Source: Yuukianura sp. NJ FZ-2021 (lineage: Eukaryota). Taken from it: a DNA stretch of 64,000 nt. The first letter of the stretch is position 1, and every line of letters begins with the position of its first letter. Under the pieces are notes generated by a model, which worked only from the letters and a program-made list of their open reading frames with translations, made no database searches and was not told where the DNA came from. The stretch spans positions 2,356,001 to 2,420,000 of the forward strand of contig CM102285.1 in assembly GCA_046563655.1 (NCBI GenBank). The letters are read 5' to 3'. Of the stretch, positions 6,894-53,247 are shown piece by piece. A program made the translations under genes and the position numbers.

Positions 6894-9411
6894 TTAGAAC
6901 ATTACGAGCAGATTAATAACGTTTTGTAGTACGATGTCTGCGTAGAGTGTGAGGAGGTAGGCTTTCGAGTCGAGCACAAACAACTGGCCAAGTCTTACGT
7001 TAATTAGTTGCCTTGAACGCCAAAATTTGTAGTTATATTCGTTTCTGTTGCGCATGTTGTGGATTCCGGCCCATCTACACTTTATGGAGTTTTGGTGGCA
7101 AAGTGCTGCGAGACTCACACCCTCCGTCATAATGAAAATAATTACGGTTGTAGCCAAGACAAACATTTGCAGTAGGATGATGTACTTTCCCTTCAGCGAC
7201 ACAACAAAAGTGTATATAAATATAACCAGCATGACTTCGCAACAGCTTATTGCATACGCAACTGAGTTTGCAAAGAGGTAGTTGGCCTGATTGTTCATGA
7301 CTTGAAGATATGTGTATGTTAGACCGTGGTTGTGTTCCCCATCATTCATTTTGTCCCTTTCAAAACACAGCACAAATTATTGCAAGTGCAGAAAGGCTTT
7401 ATTTTATAACCAGAGTTGGTCTAAATTATTGCTTTATTTTTTTGCATTGCATTGTCTTTTAAGGCTTTGTTATGCTAGCATATAATTTAACATAAGCAAT
7501 AATAAATAAACCGGTTGTAAACCGCGCATAACGAAATAGCTCAAGCCAATGGATGGTTTTCCCCCAGCCGGGGAATGTGGGGGGTGGGTACTCACTCTTT
7601 TCCCCGTATTCTTCCCCGTTTCCCCTACATTCCCCACCATTTTCCACACTCACACGCCTCTCCCCGGGAGAGTGGGGGTGGGTTCCCCCCACTTTCCCGC
7701 CCCCCGGGGGAGTGGGGGTGTTCCCCAACTTTTTCGCTACGCACCCCAGGAAGCGCGGGTGTGTGTTCCGCCCACTTTCCGCCCCGGGGGAAATGGGGGC
7801 AGGTTCCCCCCACTTTTCCGCCCCCCCCCCCGGGGAGTGGGGGTGGGTTCCCCCACTTTTCCGCCCCCCCCCCCGGAGAGTGGGGGTGGGTTCCCCCTAC
7901 TTTTCCGGCCCCCCCGGGGGAGTGGGGGGAGGTGCCCCCCACTTTTCCGCCCCCCCTTAGGGGGAGTGGGGGGAGGTTCCCCCACTTTTCCGCCCCCCCC
8001 CGGGGGAGTGGGGGGAGGTTCCCCCACTTTTCCGCCCGCCCCCCCCCCGGGGGGAGTGGGGGTGTGTTCCCACCACTTCGCCCACCTACGATGCCTATGT
8101 GAATGGGCAAGGTAGCAGGCTTGCCCATTTACAGTGTATGTTAATATGTTGACCTTTGTTCCCTGTTTTGACCCCCTTGGAGGGGTCAGAGACCCATGGT
8201 TCATATACCAAAGTTGTTCCCCTCAATAAGAGGAACAACTTTTGTCAAGGTCATTTTCCCGGTTTTATATTGAAAAGGTCAATGACCTTGACCTTTGACC
8301 CAGTAAAAGGTCACGGATCCGGATGATATTCAATAGTGAACAGGTCCGGGTCATGACATGGTGACTGGTGAAAGCCCGGTTGAAATTGGTCCAGTAGTTT
8401 CTGAGATAATAATTTGGGACAGACAGAGAGACAGACAGACAGACATGAATCAGATTATTAAATAGCTTTCGCTATTTAATAATGCGAATAAATTTTTGCT
8501 TATACGTAAGATCAAGCTTGATCGTACAAATAACCAAAAATTTATTCGAAAACAGTCCCTTCGCCGTCTTACGAGGAAAAAAATCAATATTTTAGAGCTA
8601 AATTTTAACCGCTTACAACAAAAGGTGAAGCCACAGTCGCGTTGAGTTCAAGTACAGTGAAAGCGTATTGACAACCATCAGCGCTGCAAATAGAGCATTA
8701 AGAACAGCCAGACTAAAGAATGTTTCCATGACTAAAATTATTAGTCCAGTGATGACTTGGCTGTCCACTCCGAAACAATAATGCACAACTGTTCCATACA
8801 GACGGTATGTTGACTGAGTTATGCAAGTATCGGAAAATAAAAAGAATGTTACAGTTGCAGGTACGATAATAATACGCGTGTAGTCAAATATCTTTGCCGT
8901 AACTTTTGGCGCCGATTCGTAGCCGTCTTTTTCTTTTGAAAATATTGGCAATCCATAACGCTTGTCTGAAAAATTAAACGTGAAGTTAATAAATACGGGT
9001 CAAGTGCAAAATTAATTTTAAAACACTCAAATACTTAATTGAAAAAACTATAGTATTACGAAGGTCATTGGTTAATTTGAAGAAAGTTGAGATGACGCTA
9101 TAAATTTCTGCTCCAAATGCAAAGTTCCAGAGTTGTATTCCAGTCACAAATGAGATAATTATGATCATTCCAGTCATAAAGAAGAGCTCTTTGTAGTTAT
9201 TTTGTACCAGCAACGCAATGATACAATACAATGCAATTGACATGAAATTTAATACTAGACAAATAGCTGTAAGCACTTTGGTAGTATATTCGTTACAACT
9301 TTTTGCGGCGATCTCACCCTTAATTAGAACCACTCGAAATGACGATGCCCTCCACTTGCAACCATCATTGAACACCTTCAATGAGTACTTCCAAGTAGTG
9401 TAAGACAACAT
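6894..9411 (-). CDS. 7TM chemoreceptor-like family A, copy 3 (MLSYTTWKY type), 3 exons, intron 2 enlarged by an insertion
   Basis: ORFs 8986-9411, 8613-8951 and 6894-7373 are colinear with the paralogs. Confidence 0.75.
7560..8090. repeat. GC-rich ~40-bp minisatellite (approx. CCCCCCGGGGGAGTGGGGGTGGGTTCCCCCACTTTTCCG) inside an intronic insertion
   Basis: About a dozen tandem units with variable G/C run lengths in an otherwise AT-rich window. Confidence 0.9.
8100..8470. mobile_element. Probable non-autonomous Helitron/DINE-like repeat with a (GACA)n seed; related pieces near 325-450, 9840-10000 and 33990-34113
   Basis: GTTTCTGAGATAAT...GACAGACAGAGAGACAGACAGACAGAC; the motifs TTGACCTTTGACCC and GGATGATATTCAATAGTGAACA are shared with 9841-9895. 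Confidence 0.45.
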
Positions 9412-38345: not shown

Positions 38346-38824
38346 TCGAGTAAAGTAATTACTTTGTACATTTTTTTACAATAAAACATGAAACAAATAC
38401 TCATTTAATGGTAAATTTGTACACGAGAAACATGAATATATCTTGCGATTGTGTCCACTCTATGCTCAACTATTACCAATTCATGAGTGACCTTTGCAGT
38501 TCACAAGCTTGTTACAAAAAAAAGAATGTTAGTGGAACGGTTAGATACGTGTCTGTTTTGTGCTATTTTCTTTTCGGATTTCATTAACGTGGTGTAATGT
38601 GCAAGGAAACAGTGGAACCTACTTAGGTTCTTTTTAAGTAGAAAATTAAATTTCGAATTCCAAAATTGGATTAGGGCAATGCCTGATTCTATTTGTAGAA
38701 AAGCAGCGATGGTCTGATCAAACTTTCACCTTGTCCAAGCATGGGCCTGTAATGTCTCAAATTCAATTTGGAAAATTAGCAGTGAAGTAATAAAAAATAG
38801 AGCATGACTCAGCATCGCAGTAGC

Positions 38825-38997
38825 AGTAGGAGGGTAGAGGGGACTTTCACGCCAAATCAACCTTTGGACCCATAAGGTTTTAAAGCAACTGGCGTGAGAT
38901 CCCAAAAGTCGGATTAATTAAGACTAATTAAGACATTCTTCAAGACTAATTAACACTTCCGTTCAAGACTAATTAAGACTAATTAAATACTTCCTGT
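38825..38997 (+). repeat. Left terminal inverted repeat (173 bp)
   Basis: Base-for-base reverse complement of 47897-48069; contains repeated AAGACTAATTA units and an internal TCACGCCA / TGGCGTGA inverted pair. Confidence 0.95.
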
Positions 38998-39799
38998 GAC
39001 TATTCCTGAACGCACTAATTAGCACTGCCGTTCAAGACCAATTAACGCTTCCTGTGTCAAATTAAATACATCCCGCGACAGTTAAACGCCATCTGTTCTC
39101 ATTAATTAGTCGTATTAGCAAGACGGTTTAAAAGGTGGCGTGGATGTCTAAATGGTCAGTTACTTTTCTGCATCCATAATGATTCTATCTCCAATTCCGT
39201 TCTCTGGCTCCCTCCAATTTGTTAAAATGGATGACATGAAACCTCCCATTAAAATCCAATTTTAAATGTGTGGAGAAACCTAACCACGAGCCAATAGGAA
39301 CAACTTTCCCACCAAATTTGAAACAAAAAATGCATGCGTCACTGAAAATTATGAAATTCATACTTTAAACCATGAATAGTTAGGATGCCTTTTATATCAT
39401 GTGTAAACTAACCAACTTAGTCTATAGTCCTTTTGCAAAATCGGACACATGCACCGGTAATTGGTGGTTTCCGGTCTTAATCATTTCCGGTCTACAACAC
39501 CTGACCGTTATGTAGGTGTTATAGGTTAAGGAGCAATGAAGCTTGAACATTGTTCACAACTTTTAAACGAAACAAGAAAGGACTTGTAATCCTTTATTTT
39601 CAAATTTTTTGTAAATCCATTAATGCTTCCTAGAACAATTCTCTTAACGCTACGTGTGAACATTAATTAAACACACTTGGCCAGGTTCTTTAATTACTTT
39701 GCCAGCTTGCTTTTCAACTTTTAAACGAAACTAGAAAGGACAATCATTTTTCTTCAAATTTTTAACATCTGTAAATCCTAGTTACATTAAAATTACAAG

Positions 39800-40495
39800 C
39801 TATGGAGTGGTTAGAACACCATGAAATATGATGCTGCCAATTACATCAGCACTGTACGGCTTCATTCGAAGTTCCTCGAGCGTAGAATACATGCTACGTG
39901 TAGAACTCTCCATAACAAAGGTTCTTCGACGGATCTGAAATTGTTGGTGTTTTGTCAAATCCAGCAAATGTGACGTATATTGTTTCCGAATGTGTTGATT
40001 TGTTTGTGGACAGCAGCAATTAGGACGATCGAAAACACTTCCATTACTTGGAATTTCTTTATTTCGACACCTACTCAAAGCCAATTCGCGTAGATCCTTC
40101 AAGTAGCTTCGTTTTGCTTCATGGATAACTCTATCCAACGATTCGTCTAAATACGAAGTTGGAAATGATTTTAGGAGTCTTCCAACCAAACGTGGAACTT
40201 GATCCAGCTTAACAGCAGCAGCGCCAGACGCTCGAATTAGGAATACTTGATCATCTTCTCGTATGCAATGAATATTCGCTTCCCTGATTTCCCGGATTGA
40301 TTCTACCTGGCTCGCTTTCTTACGATTTTGAGCCAGAATTTTTTCAAAATGCGGTAGGTCAGCCATCATTTTCCCCGCTCCAATGTATAGAACAACTAAC
40401 TTCTCAACTACCGTCGTCAGTTCCTCCAAAGTAAAAGTAATGGAAAAAGATGAATTTCTGACTTCAATACCGGATGTGGACGAAAGTACTTCCAT
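39800..40495 (-). CDS. Element-encoded protein of unknown function, 231 aa; paralog of 40781-41497
   Basis: Intact ORF; shares EELxTVVExLV, LPHFEKxLxQNR, YLxESLDxxIHExKRxY and LDxTKHQQ with the neighbour. Confidence 0.8.
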   Translation of the reverse strand: MEVLSSTSGIEVRNSSFSITFTLEELTTVVEKLVVLYIGAGKMMADLPHFEKILAQNRKKASQVESIREIREANIHCIREDDQVFLIRASGAAAVKLDQVPRLVGRLLKSFPTSYLDESLDRVIHEAKRSYLKDLRELALSRCRNKEIPSNGSVFDRPNCCCPQTNQHIRKQYTSHLLDLTKHQQFQIRRRTFVMESSTRSMYSTLEELRMKPYSADVIGSIIFHGVLTTP

Positions 40496-40780
40496 GTTGA
40501 GCTAATTTAAACTCGCGTTTCCTTCTTACGACCAGTTAAGACTCAACTAATTGGGACTAATTCATTTTCTTTTTGCTTTGTTAGGAGGAGCTAACTCCCT
40601 CGCCCCCAGGACTATGAATCTGATTGGCTCTTGTACAAAAAACGTTTTTGGAACTTACTTTGACCATGTGATTAGGGGGAATTTAATGCCACCCACGTTC
40701 AGGGGGGAACGCAGTGCTACCTATACAGTTTAACCATCACCATCCATTTACTATTGTACTAAAATTTACTATTGCCAAGA

Positions 40781-41497
40781 ATGGAATCTACCCTACCGGA
40801 AGTGTTTCTAAGCATGGGACTCATTGGCGTCAGGATTTCTGGAAGTTCAATTATGTTCTCATCCGAAGAACTACCAACGGTTGTAGAGGAGCTAGTCAAA
40901 GCATATATTGAAGAAGGAAGAATGATTAAGCATCTTCCACATTTTGAGAAGCTGTTACTACAGAACCGTAACAATGCAGCAAAGCAAAATGAGTACTCGC
41001 CGGATGAACCACTACTGCCGATTCATTTTATCAAGGACGCATCATCTCGTGTCATCCTTATCCGAAGCGGCGCGCCTGTTATGATCGATTTGGACCATAT
41101 TCCTCTGCTGGTTGAGTCACTTCTAAAATGTGGATGTTTTCCTATCACATACTTGGAGGAATCTTTGGATATGCTGATTCATGAAACTAAACGCGGCTAC
41201 ATCGAGAAACTTCGCAATGAGGCGTTCCGATCCTGTCACAACAAATTGGAAATCGATCCTTGTAGGAGTATTTTTGGCGAGTTCAACTGTTGCTGCACAA
41301 CAATTAATACATCAAACTACAGTCAACATGTACTGGACGTTACTAAGCACCAGCAAATGGAAATTAACAGATGGAAATGGGGAATAGATAGTTTCTATGG
41401 TAAGAGAGAACTTGCTGTACTTGAGAGTATTCGACTAGAGCATTATTCCAGTGACATAATTTGGAAAATTACTTTTCATGGTAAAAGAGATTGCTAA
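40781..41497 (+). CDS. Element-encoded protein of unknown function, 238 aa; paralog of 39800-40495
   Basis: Intact ORF from ATG at 40781; TATA-like CTATA near 40721; AATAAA at 41517. Confidence 0.8.
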   Translation: MESTLPEVFLSMGLIGVRISGSSIMFSSEELPTVVEELVKAYIEEGRMIKHLPHFEKLLLQNRNNAAKQNEYSPDEPLLPIHFIKDASSRVILIRSGAPVMIDLDHIPLLVESLLKCGCFPITYLEESLDMLIHETKRGYIEKLRNEAFRSCHNKLEIDPCRSIFGEFNCCCTTINTSNYSQHVLDVTKHQQMEINRWKWGIDSFYGKRELAVLESIRLEHYSSDIIWKITFHGKRDC

Positions 41498-41525
41498 ACG
41501 GTCTTTATTCAAGTCAAATAAATTA

Positions 41526-42266
41526 TCAATTATTTCTGTACACAGTACATCCGACATCGGGAAATATATTATTACGGATTCTAAACCTATCATCCTGGGA
41601 TTGGTGCAGGTCTATAAATACATGACCATACGGTTTTTTCATAACGTCTTCATAGCACGATTCCAGAGCTTCGTTACGTTTTCCGTTTTTTGTTAGCTGA
41701 CGTCCGAAGCAGAGAACTTGAGAGACTTCTCGAGGATTTTTCGTGAAGCCTGGCAATTTGTAGTTATCGTTCGTTGTCCTTTCTCGAAGAAGTTTTGAGT
41801 GACGAAAATTATGCTCACATTCCTGTGGTGGCTCGTTCGAGTAAATGCTGAGGCGATATGCTTATTAGCACAAACTTCCGTTCGTCAAGTACGACGATGA
41901 GTGTTGTAAGGGCTCGCAAAATCGTCAGGTAATCCATAGTGAAATTTTTGGGATGTGACTTTTCAGATCCTTAAAAAATTCATTCTCCGGCTCTCCATAA
42001 CAATAAAGGATATCATTAATCGGAATATCAATCATTTCAAAACGTTGAAGGAGTAATTGCTTAAGAAGCGACGACTTCCCACTTTGGCTTGCTCCGCTAA
42101 TTGTCATGCAGAATGGCGCCTTTAGCCTATAATCAAAACACTCATCCGCTGTGGTATCACGATCCGCTGTAGTATTATCTTTTTCCTCATGTCCATGTGC
42201 AGTATATACATGGCGTTTAAGGTTATCCGAACGTGTGAACGTACTGTTGCAAACACTACAATCCAT
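41526..42266 (-). pseudogene. Maverick A32/FtsK-like DNA-packaging ATPase with N-terminal C2H2 finger, broken by several short deletions
   Basis: CSVCNSTFTRSDNLKRHVYTAH, then Walker A ISGASQSGKS; in successive frames FHYGLPDDF, Walker B LIVVLDE, SHHRNVSIIFVTQNFF, KNPRE and KPYGHVFIDL. Confidence 0.85.
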
Positions 42267-42329
42267 GCTGTTGTGAATGCTGAAACACAATTGATGAGGG
42301 ACAGAAGTGCCTCCCTTATCACACCAACG

Positions 42330-42480
42330 CTTTATATACACCACCACCACCAGTCTTGCTAGGAGGAGGAGGAGGAGGAGGAGGAGGAGGAGGAGGAGGA
42401 GGAGGAGGAGGAGGAGGAGGAGGAGGAGGAGGAGGAGGAGGAGGAGGAGGAGGAGGCACCACCACCACCACTATAAAACT
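42330..42480. promoter_or_regulatory. Putative bidirectional promoter (outward-facing TATA boxes around the AGG array)
   Basis: TTTATATA at about 42331 (TATATAAA on the minus strand, about 65 bp before the ATPase ATG) and TATAAAA at 42472 (about 50 bp before ATG 42521). Confidence 0.55.
42361..42456. repeat. (AGG)32 perfect microsatellite flanked by (CAC)n runs
   Basis: 96 nt of uninterrupted AGG; ACACCACCACCACC on the left and CACCACCACCACCAC on the right. Confidence 0.97.
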
Positions 42481-42520
42481 GTTGCAACCGAAAAAATTTG
42501 TTCAGTTGCATTTGTACATC

Positions 42521-42952
42521 ATGCCTGTTTACTGTGACATTTGTTCCAAGTCATTTTCCCGCGCAGACGCCTTAAATCGACATATTCGCACTGCGCATTC
42601 AGACGAAGCTATGGATTCTGACTCAGAAACGGAAACTGAAGCAGAAACGGAAACTGAAGAAGAAGATGACTCTAAGGCACATTCTGGTTTGAGCAAATCC
42701 AGCTTATCGCTAATTCTTCATGCGCTACACAATGCGGATATTGGAGTTCAACGGTTAACTTTGGACAGTTTACTTAAGCTTGTGGAAGGAGCAGACGATT
42801 CTGATTCAGATGACGATGAAGAGGAATCATCCGACCAGTTGGATTCAAGTCAATTAGATTTTTTAATAGCTGTTGTAAAAGCCGGAAAAAGAAATGTAAT
42901 CAATATAACCAAAGCAGGATTGTTGACAATGCTTGACAAAATGATTTTATAA
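42521..42952 (+). CDS. Element-encoded C2H2 zinc-finger protein with acidic tracts, 143 aa
   Basis: ATG at 42521: MPVYCDICSKSFSRADALNRHIRTAH, followed by D/E-rich stretches and two similar helical segments; AATAAA at 43004. Confidence 0.8.
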   Translation: MPVYCDICSKSFSRADALNRHIRTAHSDEAMDSDSETETEAETETEEEDDSKAHSGLSKSSLSLILHALHNADIGVQRLTLDSLLKLVEGADDSDSDDDEEESSDQLDSSQLDFLIAVVKAGKRNVINITKAGLLTMLDKMIL

Positions 42953-43009
42953 ACATTTATTGTTTTCAGTTTTACGATTACTAATTCAATAGACACGACT
43001 TATAATAAA

Positions 43010-46000
43010 CTATTGTTTAATCACATCCTTATGTCCAAATGCTAATGTGTTAATTCTATCAACACCATATCGTTTCGTATCTAAACCGTTAAGAGCCCTT
43101 TTTAACGTAACTTCTGTGAAAATTCTATGCTCTACACTTCTAAATCCTCTCATCCATACACGAGTTTGAACATCTTCTTTAAGGACTTTCTCGAAATCTT
43201 CATACGCTATTTGGTTGTTGACAGCAGTTTTAGTTATTCCTTTGACTTTCTTCGTGTATTCGTCTTTGATGAACCAGCTGCCGTCAGTCTTCTTTTGGTA
43301 AATATTTTTCCCATCAAAGCCTCGGTAGACTTGAAGTTTCAAGGATCTAATGGTGTACATTTTTGGACGAGGGCAAACGACGTGAGTGACTACAGAACCG
43401 GCAGCTTCATCTTTGAATTTTCCCAAAACTTTCTTGTTTGTGGGATCGTAAAACTCTCCAAAAATGGGGTGATCGGACTCATATTCACTCATGTCATACA
43501 AGTCCTTGTCATGGAGCATGTCTTGATAAACGTCATCGGTTTGGATGTGATAGATGAAGGAATCTGAAATAAAAGTTTAAAGTTAGCTTCAGTTTGGATG
43601 TGATAGATGAAGGAATCTGAAATAAAAGTTAGCTTTAGTTTAAAGTAAGGATTGTACGACATTTACCTGTATCAGTATAAATAAGGCGGCACTTCTCGAC
43701 GCCGTATTTGGCTTGTATCGTATAATGATGTCGATACATGATGCTCTTTGCTAGCTCAAGCACTGTGACGCCCGTATATATTGGCTTATTTAAGGTGACT
43801 TGAAGTCTCCTCATCATAAAGATGCATGTTGACTCGTTAATTGGAATGACATTCTGGACGGTGGGTTTCTTGTTGTAGCGTAGAGCTTCTTCCATTGATG
43901 TAACGATACGAACGTTTTGACGCTTGCGAACTTGCTCGATGGTTTTGCCAAATGCGGAGTTGTTGAGAAGTTTCCAATAATCCTTTTCAAAGTCCGATGT
44001 AGCCCTTTTTCTCATTTCAGTGTTAAAGTCGATAAAATCCTTCATCCATGGTCTCTGATTGAAGGAAATTCCACGGTGAAGTTTTGTAACTTTAACTCCA
44101 AGCTTCAAGTACTCCATCAAAATTGCATGATGCAGAATATAATTCTTCTTATTGTTTAGATCTGCCACAAGTTTCTTTACTTTGAAAATTCCAGGACCTG
44201 TGTTGAGTTTTTCCGTCAATTGTAACTGGTGACTGGATAACTCCTTTTGTTCAACTGTACGACTAACTGGAGCTGGAGGAAAATCATTTAGCTTGTCATG
44301 CAATGAAGGATCAATTTCCAAATCCACTTCAAGCATGTATCCTTGTTCGTTGTCCATGATGAAATGGTTTTCTTGAAGTCTCATCAACTCCTGTTCAGTT
44401 AGCCAGCGGAATTGCCCAGTTGGAAGCGGAAGACTCATGCTTTTGCCCTAGTGAATAATTAAATGGTTTAGATAATAATTTTTCATAGACGTTGTTGAAT
44501 ACTTACATATAAGTTGTTGGCATCGATGTAGATGAGGTAACTTGATTCCTTTTCTGGATCGTATTCATCTCCCATGTACTTGTTGTTCGCTCTAGCTTCT
44601 CGCATTGATCCAACGCTAACGTATCCACCTAAAAATAAATGGATCAGAAAATGTCTACCATTTGTCTTGTAGGTTTTACCTCTAATAGCATGCTCCAGCC
44701 AACAATGCATGGTTGGATCTGTGATTAGTTCCAATTCCACTCCTGATTTCTTGAGAACGCAATCCATTGCCATCATAGGTAACGAAAAATAATGAGCCAG
44801 GTCCAATTCGTAAGCATCAAACATTATTTTTCGGATTCCCTCCATAACATCAGCCAGAAGCGATACATCTAGCCTGACGTATAAGTCATGCCAATCTCCC
44901 ATGTCTTGAATGTTGAAGTTCTTCCAGACTTTCTGAGCGTGCTCATACACCTTATCGTCAATGGGTGTCTCCGTCAAGTCATTGTAGAAATCTTCCTTTG
45001 ATGGTAGATTTTTGGTTTTGAAATCCTTGCAAGACTTCATGAGTGAATAAGGGTAAACACCCTTTTCGAAGAGAAGTTCAATGTCATCGTTTTGTGCAAA
45101 CTCTTGTCTGGTGATTGGAAATTTGGCATTGGGATCGGCTCGCATCACTTTCACTAATTTGTCCAAAGATTTCAGTGTAAATCCAAGACTGTCTGTAAAC
45201 CTCAGCTTGAAGGGTTTCTTCTGCCAGCGAGGTGGTTCTTCGTCCTCATCGAAATCATCGTGGTACGCAGGAACGATGCTCAGCGACATGTATTTTTCAC
45301 TGCTTTTGGGAATTACAGTGATATCTTTGATGATTCCATCCTGTCTGAGTTTTCCTGCAGATTGGACGATGAAGTGAACGTCGTAAGATGAAAAGTTGTG
45401 CATGAAGACGGGAAACTCCTTTTTGATTTGTGCTTGGAGGTTACAATCTTGGTGAGCCATTCCGATGTAGTTGAACGGTGGAAGATGCGAATGGTGTCGT
45501 ACTTTGGTTCCATCCAATATCTTCTTGCAGAAACAACAATTTTTTCAAGAGCAGCAGCACTTCTTTGTGCTGGAGTCAGATTTAGCATGTCTGGAGCAAT
45601 TTTTTCGTAGTACCGAACTTCCTCTTCGAGTGTTTTGGAGTACTCAGTAATGCTCTGAATGAATTTGGCAGCAACGTCTTCATCATCGCTGGTGATATGA
45701 TAATATTCACCATGTCGTCGTTTTCCATTGAAGTCCACGCAAACCCATGCATATCCACATGGCTTGTGTAGGTGAGTGCAACATTTATTAACAGGCTGAA
45801 CTGGTCTTCCACGTACCTCTTCTTTGAGTTGTCGGCGCTCCTCCTCTTCTATAGTTGTTGGATTAAACTTTGGGAGGAAAGCTTCAAAGTCAGCGTAAAA
45901 TCGAAATGGTGTGGGCTGAGTTCTGTCCCACTTGTTGAAAGTCAATTTGTTGTTGTCAGTTGGATATACAACTTTTTGAAGATCCAAGGAAGCGCAATAC

Positions 46001-47307
46001 TTGATGTGCTGTTGAAGAGTGTGAGCTGATTGGAAATTGGAGAGACAGTTGCGACAAATATGCTTGACTTTGTGATCATTTGGCGCTCTCATTAAGGCTT
46101 CAAGATTTCGAATCAGAATGAAGTGTGCGTTGTTTTCTTGCATAAGACACATCAAGTCGATGTGTATTTCCTTCGGCTGTTGGGAATTGTACAGTATTGA
46201 GATCTTGCTTTGTATAAAATTGAATGATTCAATTTTGCTCAACTTCGGTGGCTGTGGTCCATCCATGTCATAACCAAGAATGGTTATAGAAATGTTTGGG
46301 TTGAGTTCTTCAAAGTGAGGGATCTGATCCAAAGTCATCGGAAAATGGAGTCCTTTAGTGTTCAACTTGTATTCATTTGGCTGGTATGTTTTCACAAGCT
46401 TGTCAATGCGGCACCTATGGTTGTTTTTCCCGACTGGTATGCCACCGATTTTGTCATGGGCGAGCACTGACCAGAGGAAGCATTTGTTGTGGGAATTGTC
46501 CATTGAGAATTTGCTGTTGTTGATGTTAAGCAGAACTTTTTGAGTTGATAGTGGGTACGGGGTGTCCATGTATGTACCAATCTTGGTGAATTGATATTTT
46601 GAAGTGACAAATCCAAATTTCCGAATCGAATCCAGAGTCCAGCCGCTGCCCTCATTGGTAAAGTCTTCAATCTGGTCCGACATTTGGCTGCACATGACTG
46701 ACCAAACTTTAGGTAGCATGTTTGCATTGAAGACAAGGTGTCGAAATGAGGTGAATCCAACATCCTTTGATTCTACCGTTCCATCTCCGTGCGTTTTGGT
46801 GAAGTGACACCCCAAGGTGAAAAATATCCTTAAGTTCTTCCATCTGGAGATGTCTTCTCGGATGACTTCATAGGATGATAGTTTAACATTCGTAAAAAAG
46901 TCTCTCTCGTCGACACCTTCACCACATGGAAATGTATCAAAGTCGGCCATGTACTTGCGACTCATTTTTAGAGATTCCAGCACTAAAGTCACGGATATAG
47001 GATCGGTTGATATTCCTCCGCCATCTTGAATGCTAAAGTCTGGATGAGTGGTGTAGAAATGCTCTTGAAGCTTATTCCGACAATCAAATGGTATACCACA
47101 TGTATAGCAAAACAAATGGCGAAATTCCTGTAGAATACTCTCGTTCGTGACATCGTAACCTGGTGGTGCTGGTTCAAGGCAGTTTTTATGGACATGGTCG
47201 AAATGTAGTTTTAATATTGCTCGAGAAGCAAACCCTTGAGCGCACAGTATGCAATTAAATTGTTTACTTGATGGTCCAACAATTGGTGTTCCTTGGCGCT
47301 TTGACAT
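43010..47307 (-). CDS. Protein-primed family-B DNA polymerase (pPolB) with N-terminal C2H2 fingers and an HNH-like insert; 3 spliceosomal introns (44629-44679, 44448-44506, 43564-43666) and one frameshift near 45540
   Basis: Exo motifs YADFEA, FMHNFSSYDVHF, YVRLDV; EKGVYPY; after splicing IRGGYV, YIDANNLYGKSM, KLLNNSAFGKT, YTDTDSF, LGKFKDE, RPKMY, KVKGI. 4298 nt - 213 nt of introns + 1 nt = 4086 nt, i.e. 1361 aa plus stop. Confidence 0.92.
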
Positions 47308-47630
47308 TGTTTAGGACAATAAGATTCTTAGGACAATAGAACTGAGTTGTGTAAAGACTGAAAGTCTCCGTAAAACTTAGCGACAATCTTAGGACAATAG
47401 AACTGAACAGTAGTTGCGCAGAGACTGAAAGTCTCCGTAAATGTGTGGTATTATATACCCTCTCGACACCTGCCGACCCCCTAAGCCGACCCCCAAAGAA
47501 TTTGTGGGTCAGGGTATAGCCTTTTTTCGTGTTCCTCCTCCTCCTCCTCCCACCCGCCAGATATTGTTAACGGACAAAGGTATTAATTAAATAACAGGAA
47601 GTGTTAATTGTCACAGGAAATTAGGATTCT

Positions 47631-47882
47631 GCCAGAGCCGACCCCCTAAGCAAAAGCCGACCCCCCAAACATTATTGGTTTAGCTTTGATTCCCACATTT
47701 TTTCTTCCTCCTCCTCCATGGTCAGCGGACAAAGGTACTAATTAAATAACAGGAGTGCCAGAGCCGACCCCCTAAGCAAAAGCCGACCCCCCAAACATTA
47801 TTGGTTTAGCTTTGAATCCCACATTTTTTCTTCCTCCTCCTCCATGGTCAGCGGACAAAGGTACTAATTAAATAACAGGAGT
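47631..47882. repeat. Subterminal tandem duplication, 126-bp period (2 near-identical copies plus a degenerate copy at ~47470-47600)
   Basis: GCCAGAGCCGACCCCCTAAGCAAAAGCCGACCCCCC... at 47631 and 47757. Confidence 0.9.
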
Positions 47883-47896
47883 GTTAATTAAAGTCA

Positions 47897-48069
47897 ACAG
47901 GAAGTATTTAATTAGTCTTAATTAGTCTTGAACGGAAGTGTTAATTAGTCTTGAAGAATGTCTTAATTAGTCTTAATTAATCCGACTTTTGGGATCTCAC
48001 GCCAGTTGCTTTAAAACCTTATGGGTCCAAAGGTTGATTTGGCGTGAAAGTCCCCTCTACCCTCCTACT
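47897..48069 (-). repeat. Right terminal inverted repeat (173 bp)
   Basis: Exact reverse complement of 38825-38997. Confidence 0.95.
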
Positions 48070-49270
48070 GTAGCAGTGGAATTTTTTCTTTTGTAGAAGC
48101 ATGCATAGTTCATGATGCAAGTGAAAGCGATCTGCAACTTTTCATTTCAAATTGATGTTCGCTACATTTTCCCTCTTCTGGTTCTCATCCTTCTACTGCT
48201 TGCTCGCTCTCTGGCTGGTTTGGGAGACGTTGCGACGACTTCGCTTCCTTCCTGAAAGGCTTTGCCAGTCTAGGCCAAGCTGCTTATTTTCGTCAACCAA
48301 ACGCAACAAAAATTTTTCTTGCCTTCACTGAGTAAATTTTATGTCTTTCTAATTTAATCTATCGGTAATGGCAGGAAAAAAACAATACTCTTTAAATTCT
48401 CTACAACTTTTTGTTTCGGAGTTGGCCTATTCATGCTCAATTTTCACTGAATCATCTGCCATCGTCAAACCAAAATAAATAAAATTAGTAAAATTATAAG
48501 TCAGCTTTCGCTACTTCATAAAACCAAATTTTTATATAAAAAAAATTGTTCATTTTGATGTCGGGTTTGATGTTGAAAAAAATTAAAAAGGCAATGTAAA
48601 AAGCCACGTACCGAATCTATGACAAGATTTTGATTCGACGATTTTATTTCCGAGGGTTATCTAATTCTGCTTACCGGCACTAACTGTTTTCTTTTCTAGA
48701 CTGAATCAGACGCTCGCTTTCTCTTTCGTTCCACATCTACTATAAAAAGAGCAGCATCTAGTGCTTTTCAGAACACAAGAGCAACCCTAACTTTACTGAA
48801 ATCAGTCTAAAACCTACGAGATCCCCACTTTCACTTCTAGTGCGTCGTTTTCAGTTTCTAGTTAACAAAGCCTTACATTTTGGATTTACCTCACACAAAA
48901 GACTTTTGTCACATCATCCAACTTTCACTTCAACCTTGTATCTACTAACGATAAGTAAGTTTAAGCTTCTTTTCCATCTTACTTTTTCATTCTCCAAACA
49001 TTTTCAAAAGTTTTGAGTTTTTGAGTTTTTTTTCAAAGCCCATCTTCTGGTGCATTGTGCACAAATCAATGTCAGTCATGAGCAAAGTGAAGCATGTTGG
49101 TTTGTTTATTTTGTGGAAAAGGTGATCCAGACACACGCTCCGTCTTCATCAAGGCCTTTTCCTACAAGTGGATGGCCTTTGTGGCGTCCTGAGCAGAAGC
49201 AGTAGTATCAAATTCACTAGAAGGGCCCTACCTAAAACCTAGAATTTCCTAGAAATCTCTAGCACTGGTT

Positions 49271-53247
<3,977 letters not shown>

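Follow-up and report, generated by a model that had tools for sequence, protein, structure and literature searches.

A compact Polinton/Maverick derivative in Yuukianura sp. with a protein-primed polymerase gene and no recognisable integrase, capsid or protease gene

An insertion of 9,245 bp holding five genes was found at positions 38825-48069 of a 64-kb stretch of the Yuukianura sp. NJ FZ-2021 genome (assembly GCA_046563655.1, contig CM102285.1, forward-strand positions 2,356,001 to 2,420,000). This stretch, hereafter the window, was the whole search space for copies of the element's terminal inverted repeats (TIRs) and for frames in its flanks. We favour, with modest confidence, the reading that the element is a non-autonomous, capsid-less derivative of canonical Polintons/Mavericks whose integrase would be supplied in trans. 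An initial annotation, made by a model from the sequence, had placed it among the relatives of Mavericks, an affiliation upheld by the type of its family B DNA polymerase of the protein-primed kind (pPolB), a relic of a Pox_A32-type ATPase, TIR ends of the AG..CT type and a short target-site duplication (TSD). The other three genes encode an acidic zinc-finger protein and two paralogs that match no known Pfam family. Intact ends and a TSD, with no integration enzyme encoded in the element itself, are what a non-autonomous transposon presents.

The repeat finder returned inverted arms at 38824-38997 and 47897-48070 (174 nt, 100% complementary). One base per arm belongs to the flank, so each TIR measures 173 bp (left, 38825..38997, + strand, starting with AGTAGG; right, 47897..48069, − strand, ending with CCTACT) and the element 9,245 bp, the two arms being perfect inverted matches of one another. 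Read directly from the sequence, the TSD is GTAGC at 38820..38824, identical to 48070..48074. The length, the identical 173-bp TIRs, the TSD and the five genes that had been annotated were reproduced, with one reservation about an intact TSD: five bases are certain, and a sixth (GTAGCA) can be counted only with the terminal A assigned to the flank. A 29-nt terminal probe matched at both TIRs and nowhere else in the window (0 expected, 100 shuffles). According to an excerpt of PMC8097293, vertebrate Mavericks end in (AGT)2//(ACT)2 or (AG)3//(CT)3 and have 6-bp TSDs; AGTAGG agrees with (AGT)2 in five of six bases. The target, (A)GTAGC(A), itself resembles the element terminus AGTAGG(A) (38819-38830 and 48064-48075), by chance or by target preference in what is a single insertion.

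Pfam was run on 105 frames of the element, namely the 10 main ones and 95 further frames of at least 35 aa (E <= 0.1), and returned no rve integrase and no family of double jelly-roll (DJR) capsid, penton or adenain-type protease. The window was also searched by tblastn with all 1,303 frames of at least 80 aa from 62 related loci (see below), two DJR-bearing frames included. Matches fell in the polymerase (230), in the ATPase relic (one) and outside the element in host DNA (three), with none elsewhere in the element, and the integrase frames of the related loci matched nothing in the window. Sizeable non-coding stretches of the element are limited to about 805 nt and 589 nt. The claim that integrase, capsid and protease are missing, with no room left for them, thus withstood both searches, neither of which returned a remnant. 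The set expected of a Polinton-like virus or virophage (major and minor capsid proteins plus packaging ATPase) is not present either, since capsid genes are lacking and the one ATPase gene is dead.

What this polymerase family usually travels with can be seen in its relatives. The polymerase alignment, used to scan a collection of bacterial and archaeal genomes, gave 62 loci (L001-L062) in metagenome-assembled genomes (MAGs), 32-43% identical over a 353-aa polymerase segment, which are evidently eukaryotic or viral contaminants of the bins; many sit in a single MAG (contigs CBDDTI01...). Whole Polinton-like contigs are among the loci, such as L002 with an A32 ATPase, a DJR capsid protein, a PLA2-like protein and an rve+chromo integrase. 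The 22 loci of at least 8 kb yielded 361 frames of at least 130 aa, of which 106, from 11 loci, were scanned with Pfam. An rve domain was found in six of these 11 loci (L002, L013, L015, L032, L037 and L053; four above the Pfam gathering score), Pox_A32 also in six and DJR in two, and chromo and PLA2-like domains occur among them too. Given the presence of rve, Pox_A32 and DJR in related loci, this polymerase family appears to reside normally in canonical Polintons. In these relatives the polymerase occupies one long open frame, of 1,112-1,596 codons. As a separate observation, a TATA-binding-protein domain is found in L013:1505-1993 (−) and L042:747-2050 (−), the latter locus also having a TFIIB-like protein; both lie a few kb from the polymerase. 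Such transcription factors seem unusual on Polinton-like contigs.

The pPolB gene of the element (43010..47307, stop included, − strand) was delimited from relatives and collinear mapping and is full length, in four collinear segments from 47307 to 43013. Its 353-aa segment has 3,010 protein relatives at E <= 0.001 (best 53% identical, E down to 2e-105). Of these, 120 were listed; many of the listed ones carry PF03175 and PF02945, and those with names come from a springtail and from cnidarians. Seven relatives were mapped back to the window by tblastn, and residues 47-1330 of the 1,339 of P0003 (1,284 residues) span all four segments without loss. The family assignment rests on these relatives because Pfam, applied to the separate segments, named no polymerase family even at E <= 10; phmmer with two of the segments against PDB sequences likewise gave no match at E <= 1. 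In a FastTree phylogeny of 39 sequences, from which matches aligned over less than 280 residues were left out, along with protein matches at least 75% identical to one kept, the polymerase clusters with P0001-P0005 and P0007, the last from Folsomia candida, with support 1.0.

Residues D473 and E475 are invariant in the family and kept (32 sequences), as are N50, Y54 and D55, Y222 and D226, and D341..N344-L345 (23 sequences). We take these to be, respectively, the motifs Exo I (D473/E475), Exo II (N50/Y54/D55), Exo III (Y222/D226) and Pol A (D341..N344-L345). The motifs KLLNNSAFGK and YTDT|DS can be read directly in the polymerase. The list of pPolB motifs was that of Jeong et al. (PMC10748475, in excerpt). 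As judged from its sequence, the element has the polymerase that characterises a Polinton/Maverick, in this copy with one frame break.

The gene is interrupted by two spliceosomal introns. Removal of intron 1 (44448..44506, − strand, 59 nt, GTAAGT..TAG) rebuilds DANNLYG, and removal of intron 2 (43564..43666, − strand, 103 nt, ending in TTTCAG) rebuilds YTDTDS; the two lengths and this ending are reminiscent of nematode introns. A 53-nt tandem duplication (43536..43630, copies 98% identical, repeat finder) spans the acceptor of this second intron together with 28 nt at the beginning of the last polymerase segment, so that intron 2 encloses a second, proximal copy of the acceptor. Splicing to the proximal acceptor would run into a stop after 42 codons; with the distal acceptor, YTDTDS is formed and the full 184 codons are read. 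The frame break falls in a run of six A at 45540..45545 (− strand), with the Exo I motif on one side and a CxxC..HxH..CN insert on the other. An intron at this site was ruled out, there being no room for one and the relatives being continuous there; the break could be a homopolymer error of the assembly. The annotated statement that the element keeps its polymerase therefore holds for all catalytic motifs and has to be qualified by the frame break and the duplicated acceptor.

A long N-terminal region is conserved in this family, being common to 101 of the 120 listed protein matches at E <= 1e-5, and the N-terminal 489 residues gave a structure model of pLDDT 74. Approximately 130 columns of residues about 105-450 (45841-47307, − strand) resemble Y-family DNA polymerases (Dpo4, pol kappa; probability up to 0.99, E about 5e-3), a modelled likeness that may serve as a lead to the nature of the supposed terminal-protein region. 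A hidden integrase or nuclease in these 489 residues was considered and rejected: only the partial Y-family matches were obtained, with nothing RNase H-like among the 50 matches listed. Further along the protein, Pfam calls Endonuclease_7 on the CxxC..HxH..CN-type domain in polymerase relatives. One related polymerase (L032:3320-8077, + strand, 1,586 codons) also bears a C2H2 zinc finger towards its N-terminus, so the window element is not alone in having fingers on its polymerase.

In contrast to the polymerase, the Pox_A32-type (FtsK/HerA-like) ATPase gene (41526..42266, stop included, − strand; Pfam and relatives) is predicted to be dead, present as a pseudogene only. Its first 113 codons are open and encode an N-terminal C2H2 finger and Walker A. 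A search with the C-terminal piece found two proteins of 214 aa (75% and 64% identity), both with PF04665. The closer of them, P0123 (PF04665 at E 1.9e-8), is intact and, in a frame-aware alignment, collinear with the relic throughout (144 of 204 codons identical, 71%). At least three disabling lesions are seen in that comparison: the frame is broken near 41948 and again near 41748, and a TGA stands in frame near 41886. The description of this gene as an ATPase relic is accordingly sound. An alternative reading has four frame changes and leaves a Walker B-like LIVVLDE in a third frame. Homopolymer errors of the assembly were ruled out as their source, since at three of the four junctions the relatives are longer by a few residues, meaning that bases are missing there and not miscounted.

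Paralogs A (231 aa, 39800..40495, stop included, − strand) and B (238 aa, 40781..41497, stop included, + strand), identified as open frames and by alignment to each other, stand head-to-head across a 285-nt spacer. Their alignment extends over 231 aa at 45% identity (E 1e-57). Identity at codon positions 1, 2 and 3 is 61, 65 and 37%, with pN 0.37 and pS 0.77 (saturated); the far greater divergence of third positions and the saturated pS indicate an old duplication with both copies under purifying selection. No relative was found for them. A word-based protein search gave no match, a two-sequence profile run with HMMER against 1.84 billion representatives gave two (both long, aligned in 18 and 7 separate stretches, and taken as repetitive), and the comparison with the Atlas gave no usable match. 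They are not among the 62 related loci, and an exact look-up of four element proteins in a protein collection found none present. The AlphaFold model is poor (pLDDT 59), and Foldseek with it against PDB and BFVD returned nothing at E <= 0.001. Faint likenesses to dsRBD and PUR repeats were set aside as untrustworthy. The annotation had counted it against its own proposal should these frames prove to be integrase or capsid proteins; no Pfam family or fold pointed to either, and an integrase identity was rejected with an hhalign probability of 0.13% for the paralog profile against six Polinton integrases.

Decay is unevenly spread over the five genes. The ATPase accounts for 0.64 kb out of 6.7 kb of coding sequence but holds three to four of the four to six disabling lesions (binomial p 0.0004-0.0075), leaving one or two in the other 6 kb. 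Given that transposon genes are selected only during propagation, the lineage seems to have spread needing the polymerase and not the ATPase. The pattern suggests that it did so while perhaps also needing the paralogs. Of the arguments that the element itself offers against plain decay in place, this clustering is the strongest.

The ends carry repeats that bear on how the element might be recognised. The inner half of each TIR contains five GACTAATTAA-type 10-mers, which a repeat search places in the left TIR as an array of period 10 (38912..38986, + strand). Extra copies lie just inside both ends, two of them past the left TIR at 39036 and 39102. In total, 24 GACTAATTAA-type matches were counted in the window against 8.4 expected, mostly at both ends of the element. 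Between the polymerase start and the right TIR there are two 126-nt tandem repeats (47630..47883, 99% identical) with an older, diverged third copy upstream, giving an array at 47457-47883 with a unit of ~126-170 nt. Each of these three copies has a TAATTAAATA-type motif resembling the inner end of the TIR.

The acidic zinc-finger gene (42521..42952, stop included, + strand) encodes 143 aa with one N-terminal C2H2 finger (zf-C2H2, E 4e-7) and an acidic serine-rich tail. Its neighbours in sequence searches are generic C2H2 proteins only, and its finger is 45% identical over 29 aa to that of the ATPase relic. A perfect (AGG)32 microsatellite (42361..42456) lies between these two divergent genes and may be part of a promoter region common to both.

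The surrounding DNA holds ordinary eukaryotic genes in pieces, with Pfam matches to Na/H exchanger, Fumble/ARMT1 pantothenate kinase, EamA, PAN and POT domains. No frame longer than 56 aa spans the reconstructed empty site, and the insertion site is probably intergenic or intronic. Rfam returned no match in the whole window. A GC-rich minisatellite at 7662-8078 (42-nt units, about 9 copies) accounts for the GC peak (0.52) at 7-8 kb and for several spurious overlapping open frames. A host region at 52307-52704 is weakly similar to a 612-aa frame of L058 (37-39% over 43-46 residues), probably through an unrelated shared domain.

To account for the element we envisage an ancestor with polymerase, packaging ATPase, capsid genes, protease and rve integrase, as the relatives of the polymerase still have. 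Integrase and virion genes would have been removed by internal loss, and the packaging ATPase, without use afterwards, would have decayed. The ends, the polymerase, the zinc-finger acidic gene and the paralog pair would have been kept. With no integrase gene in the element, its insertion is most simply explained by help in trans: a Polinton-type integrase from a complete relative, recognising the AGTAG.. ends, would have inserted the element, which would also explain the short TSD. In its reduced form the lineage would have spread for a time under selection for its own polymerase. The polymerase would copy the excised form by protein priming, and the zinc fingers of polymerase, ATPase relic and acidic protein may have the terminal GACTAATTAA arrays as their binding sites. 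One can go further and speculate that this is an animal Polinton lineage without capsid and integrase that lives as a polymerase-bearing satellite, replicating by protein priming, borrowing integration and perhaps packaging, with the paralogs and zinc-finger proteins as end-binding or maintenance factors, and hence a living intermediate toward capsid-less pPolB replicons; we consider this wider proposal doubtful.

Several observations weigh against a derivative mobilised in trans. The element is a single copy in the window, where neither a further ~9.2-kb copy nor a helper with the same ends occurs, and no integrase was found among the window frames of at least 110 aa (42 flank frames, Pfam). 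None of the eight tree loci of known gene content falls in the clade of the window polymerase. The lesion cluster in the ATPase could stem from one local mutational event, and lesions in the paralogs and the acidic gene were judged by open frames only. With the frame break and the ambiguous splice acceptor, the notion of a self-replicating element fails for this copy as assembled, and given the frame break the copy may already be dead.

A rival history is that of a full-length Polinton that inserted here and then lost its integrase and virion genes by one or more local deletions and rearrangements, never having moved in its present form; we rate it as rather unlikely but worth serious consideration. 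Decay is the common fate of these elements: 96% of 3,511 vertebrate Maverick loci are degraded according to the excerpt of PMC8097293, and 10 loci with pPolB1 and a TIR and without integrase are mentioned for C. elegans in the excerpt of PMC11414722. Young lesions are present here as well (the frame break and the 53-nt and 126-nt duplications, 98-99% identical). The recent insertion deduced in the annotation from identical TIRs is supported inasmuch as no difference is found, but zero differences in 173 bp bound the divergence of the arms only to below about 1.7% (rule of three), which is compatible with decay in place. On the other side, neither the ends nor the TSD show a flaw, the searches turned up no piece of the lost genes, and lesions are concentrated in the ATPase, with at most two in the other 6 kb of coding sequence. 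The space of the virion genes is taken by two old paralogs, under selection and absent from the 62 related loci, for which a plain deletion offers no explanation. The opinion that this is no simple in-situ deletion thus receives indirect support, from the clustering of ATPase lesions and from purifying selection on the paralogs.

Alternatively, the element might be autonomous by a new integration route, with the paralogs or the CxxC..HxH..CN nuclease-like insert of the polymerase in place of rve. The paralogs, kept under selection and matching no known family or fold, could have a role in DNA transactions, and the domain in question is the one that Pfam calls Endonuclease_7 in relatives of the polymerase. 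The insert nevertheless coexists with rve among the scanned frames of L037 and L053, so it is no stand-in for an integrase there. The paralogs show the negligible profile probability against Polinton integrases given above, their poor structure model offers no help, and AG..CT ends with a 5-6-bp TSD are the outcome of a known integrase; we hold this route to be very improbable. Slightly less credible still is a mainly extrachromosomal, protein-primed, linear-plasmid-like replicon captured here by chance, a derivation that the annotation had entertained and for which nothing specific was found. Inverted ends, a polymerase whose N-terminal region is long and conserved, and a lack of virion genes are indeed what a pPolB plasmid would be expected to have, and the lineage apparently needed its polymerase and not its ATPase. 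A chromosomal copy with a clean TSD, however, points to enzymatic integration, and the two introns, being spliceosomal, imply that the polymerase is expressed from the nucleus.

Our literature search, in a limited collection, returned no account of a compact, perfect-ended element with a TSD that keeps its polymerase together with a conserved pair of unknown genes and has lost integrase and virion genes. Polinton surveys usually require integrase and capsid genes beside the polymerase, which excludes polymerase-only reduced forms by design. If the derivative we favour is mobile, a self-synthesizing transposon can split its functions, with replication in cis and integration in trans, and animals would offer a parallel to the route by which capsid-less pPolB replicons are proposed to have descended from Polintons. 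Its two new conserved proteins would then be candidate factors for recognising the ends or for maintenance. A solitary, decayed copy would be nothing unusual.

Among known systems, canonical Polintons with the Endonuclease_7-like insert (L002, L013 and L053) share with the window element the polymerase family, the conserved N-terminal region and the A32 type of ATPase, and L037 has, like the window element, an ATPase behind the polymerase on the same strand. L002, L013 and L053 nevertheless carry rve(+chromo), a DJR capsid protein and a PLA2-like protein, none of which the window element has. The polymerase frames of these canonical contigs are intronless, unlike the window polymerase with its two introns, and the contigs lack the paralog pair and the acidic zinc-finger gene. 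The pPolB linear plasmids resemble the element in combining inverted ends and pPolB with no capsid genes. Linear plasmids encoding a protein-primed polymerase are extrachromosomal, whereas the element is chromosomal with a TSD and has spliceosomal introns and a Polinton ATPase relic.

Nematode Polintons, as described in excerpts of PMC10748475 and 10.1101/2022.07.12.499685, are similar in their TIRs, in their TSD and in one pPolB class with a nuclease-like insert, and like the element they have a cargo region adjoining one TIR. In the same excerpts their core genes are intronless and the 3′ end of the polymerase gene faces the TIR, whereas here it is the 5′ end; moreover, the named relatives of the window polymerase, among the matches listed, are springtail and cnidarian and not nematode. 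The excerpt of PMC10748475 defines the pPolB1 and pPolB2 Polintons of nematodes by five core proteins within 20 kb or by linkage to an integrase, and by the former criterion a copy without integrase would be filtered out of that survey. The C. elegans remnants of Zhang et al. 2024 (excerpt of PMC11414722) have kept the polymerase and an end and lost the integrase, as here, but they are partial and have 744-bp TIRs, whereas the window element is compact, with both ends perfect, a TSD and extra genes under selection. The Pieris butterfly polinton variants without polB (10.1101/2025.02.07.637071, excerpt) have lost one core gene and apparently still spread, which raises the matter of help in trans for them as well; these variants keep the integrase and virion genes and lose the polymerase, and the window element shows the reverse loss.

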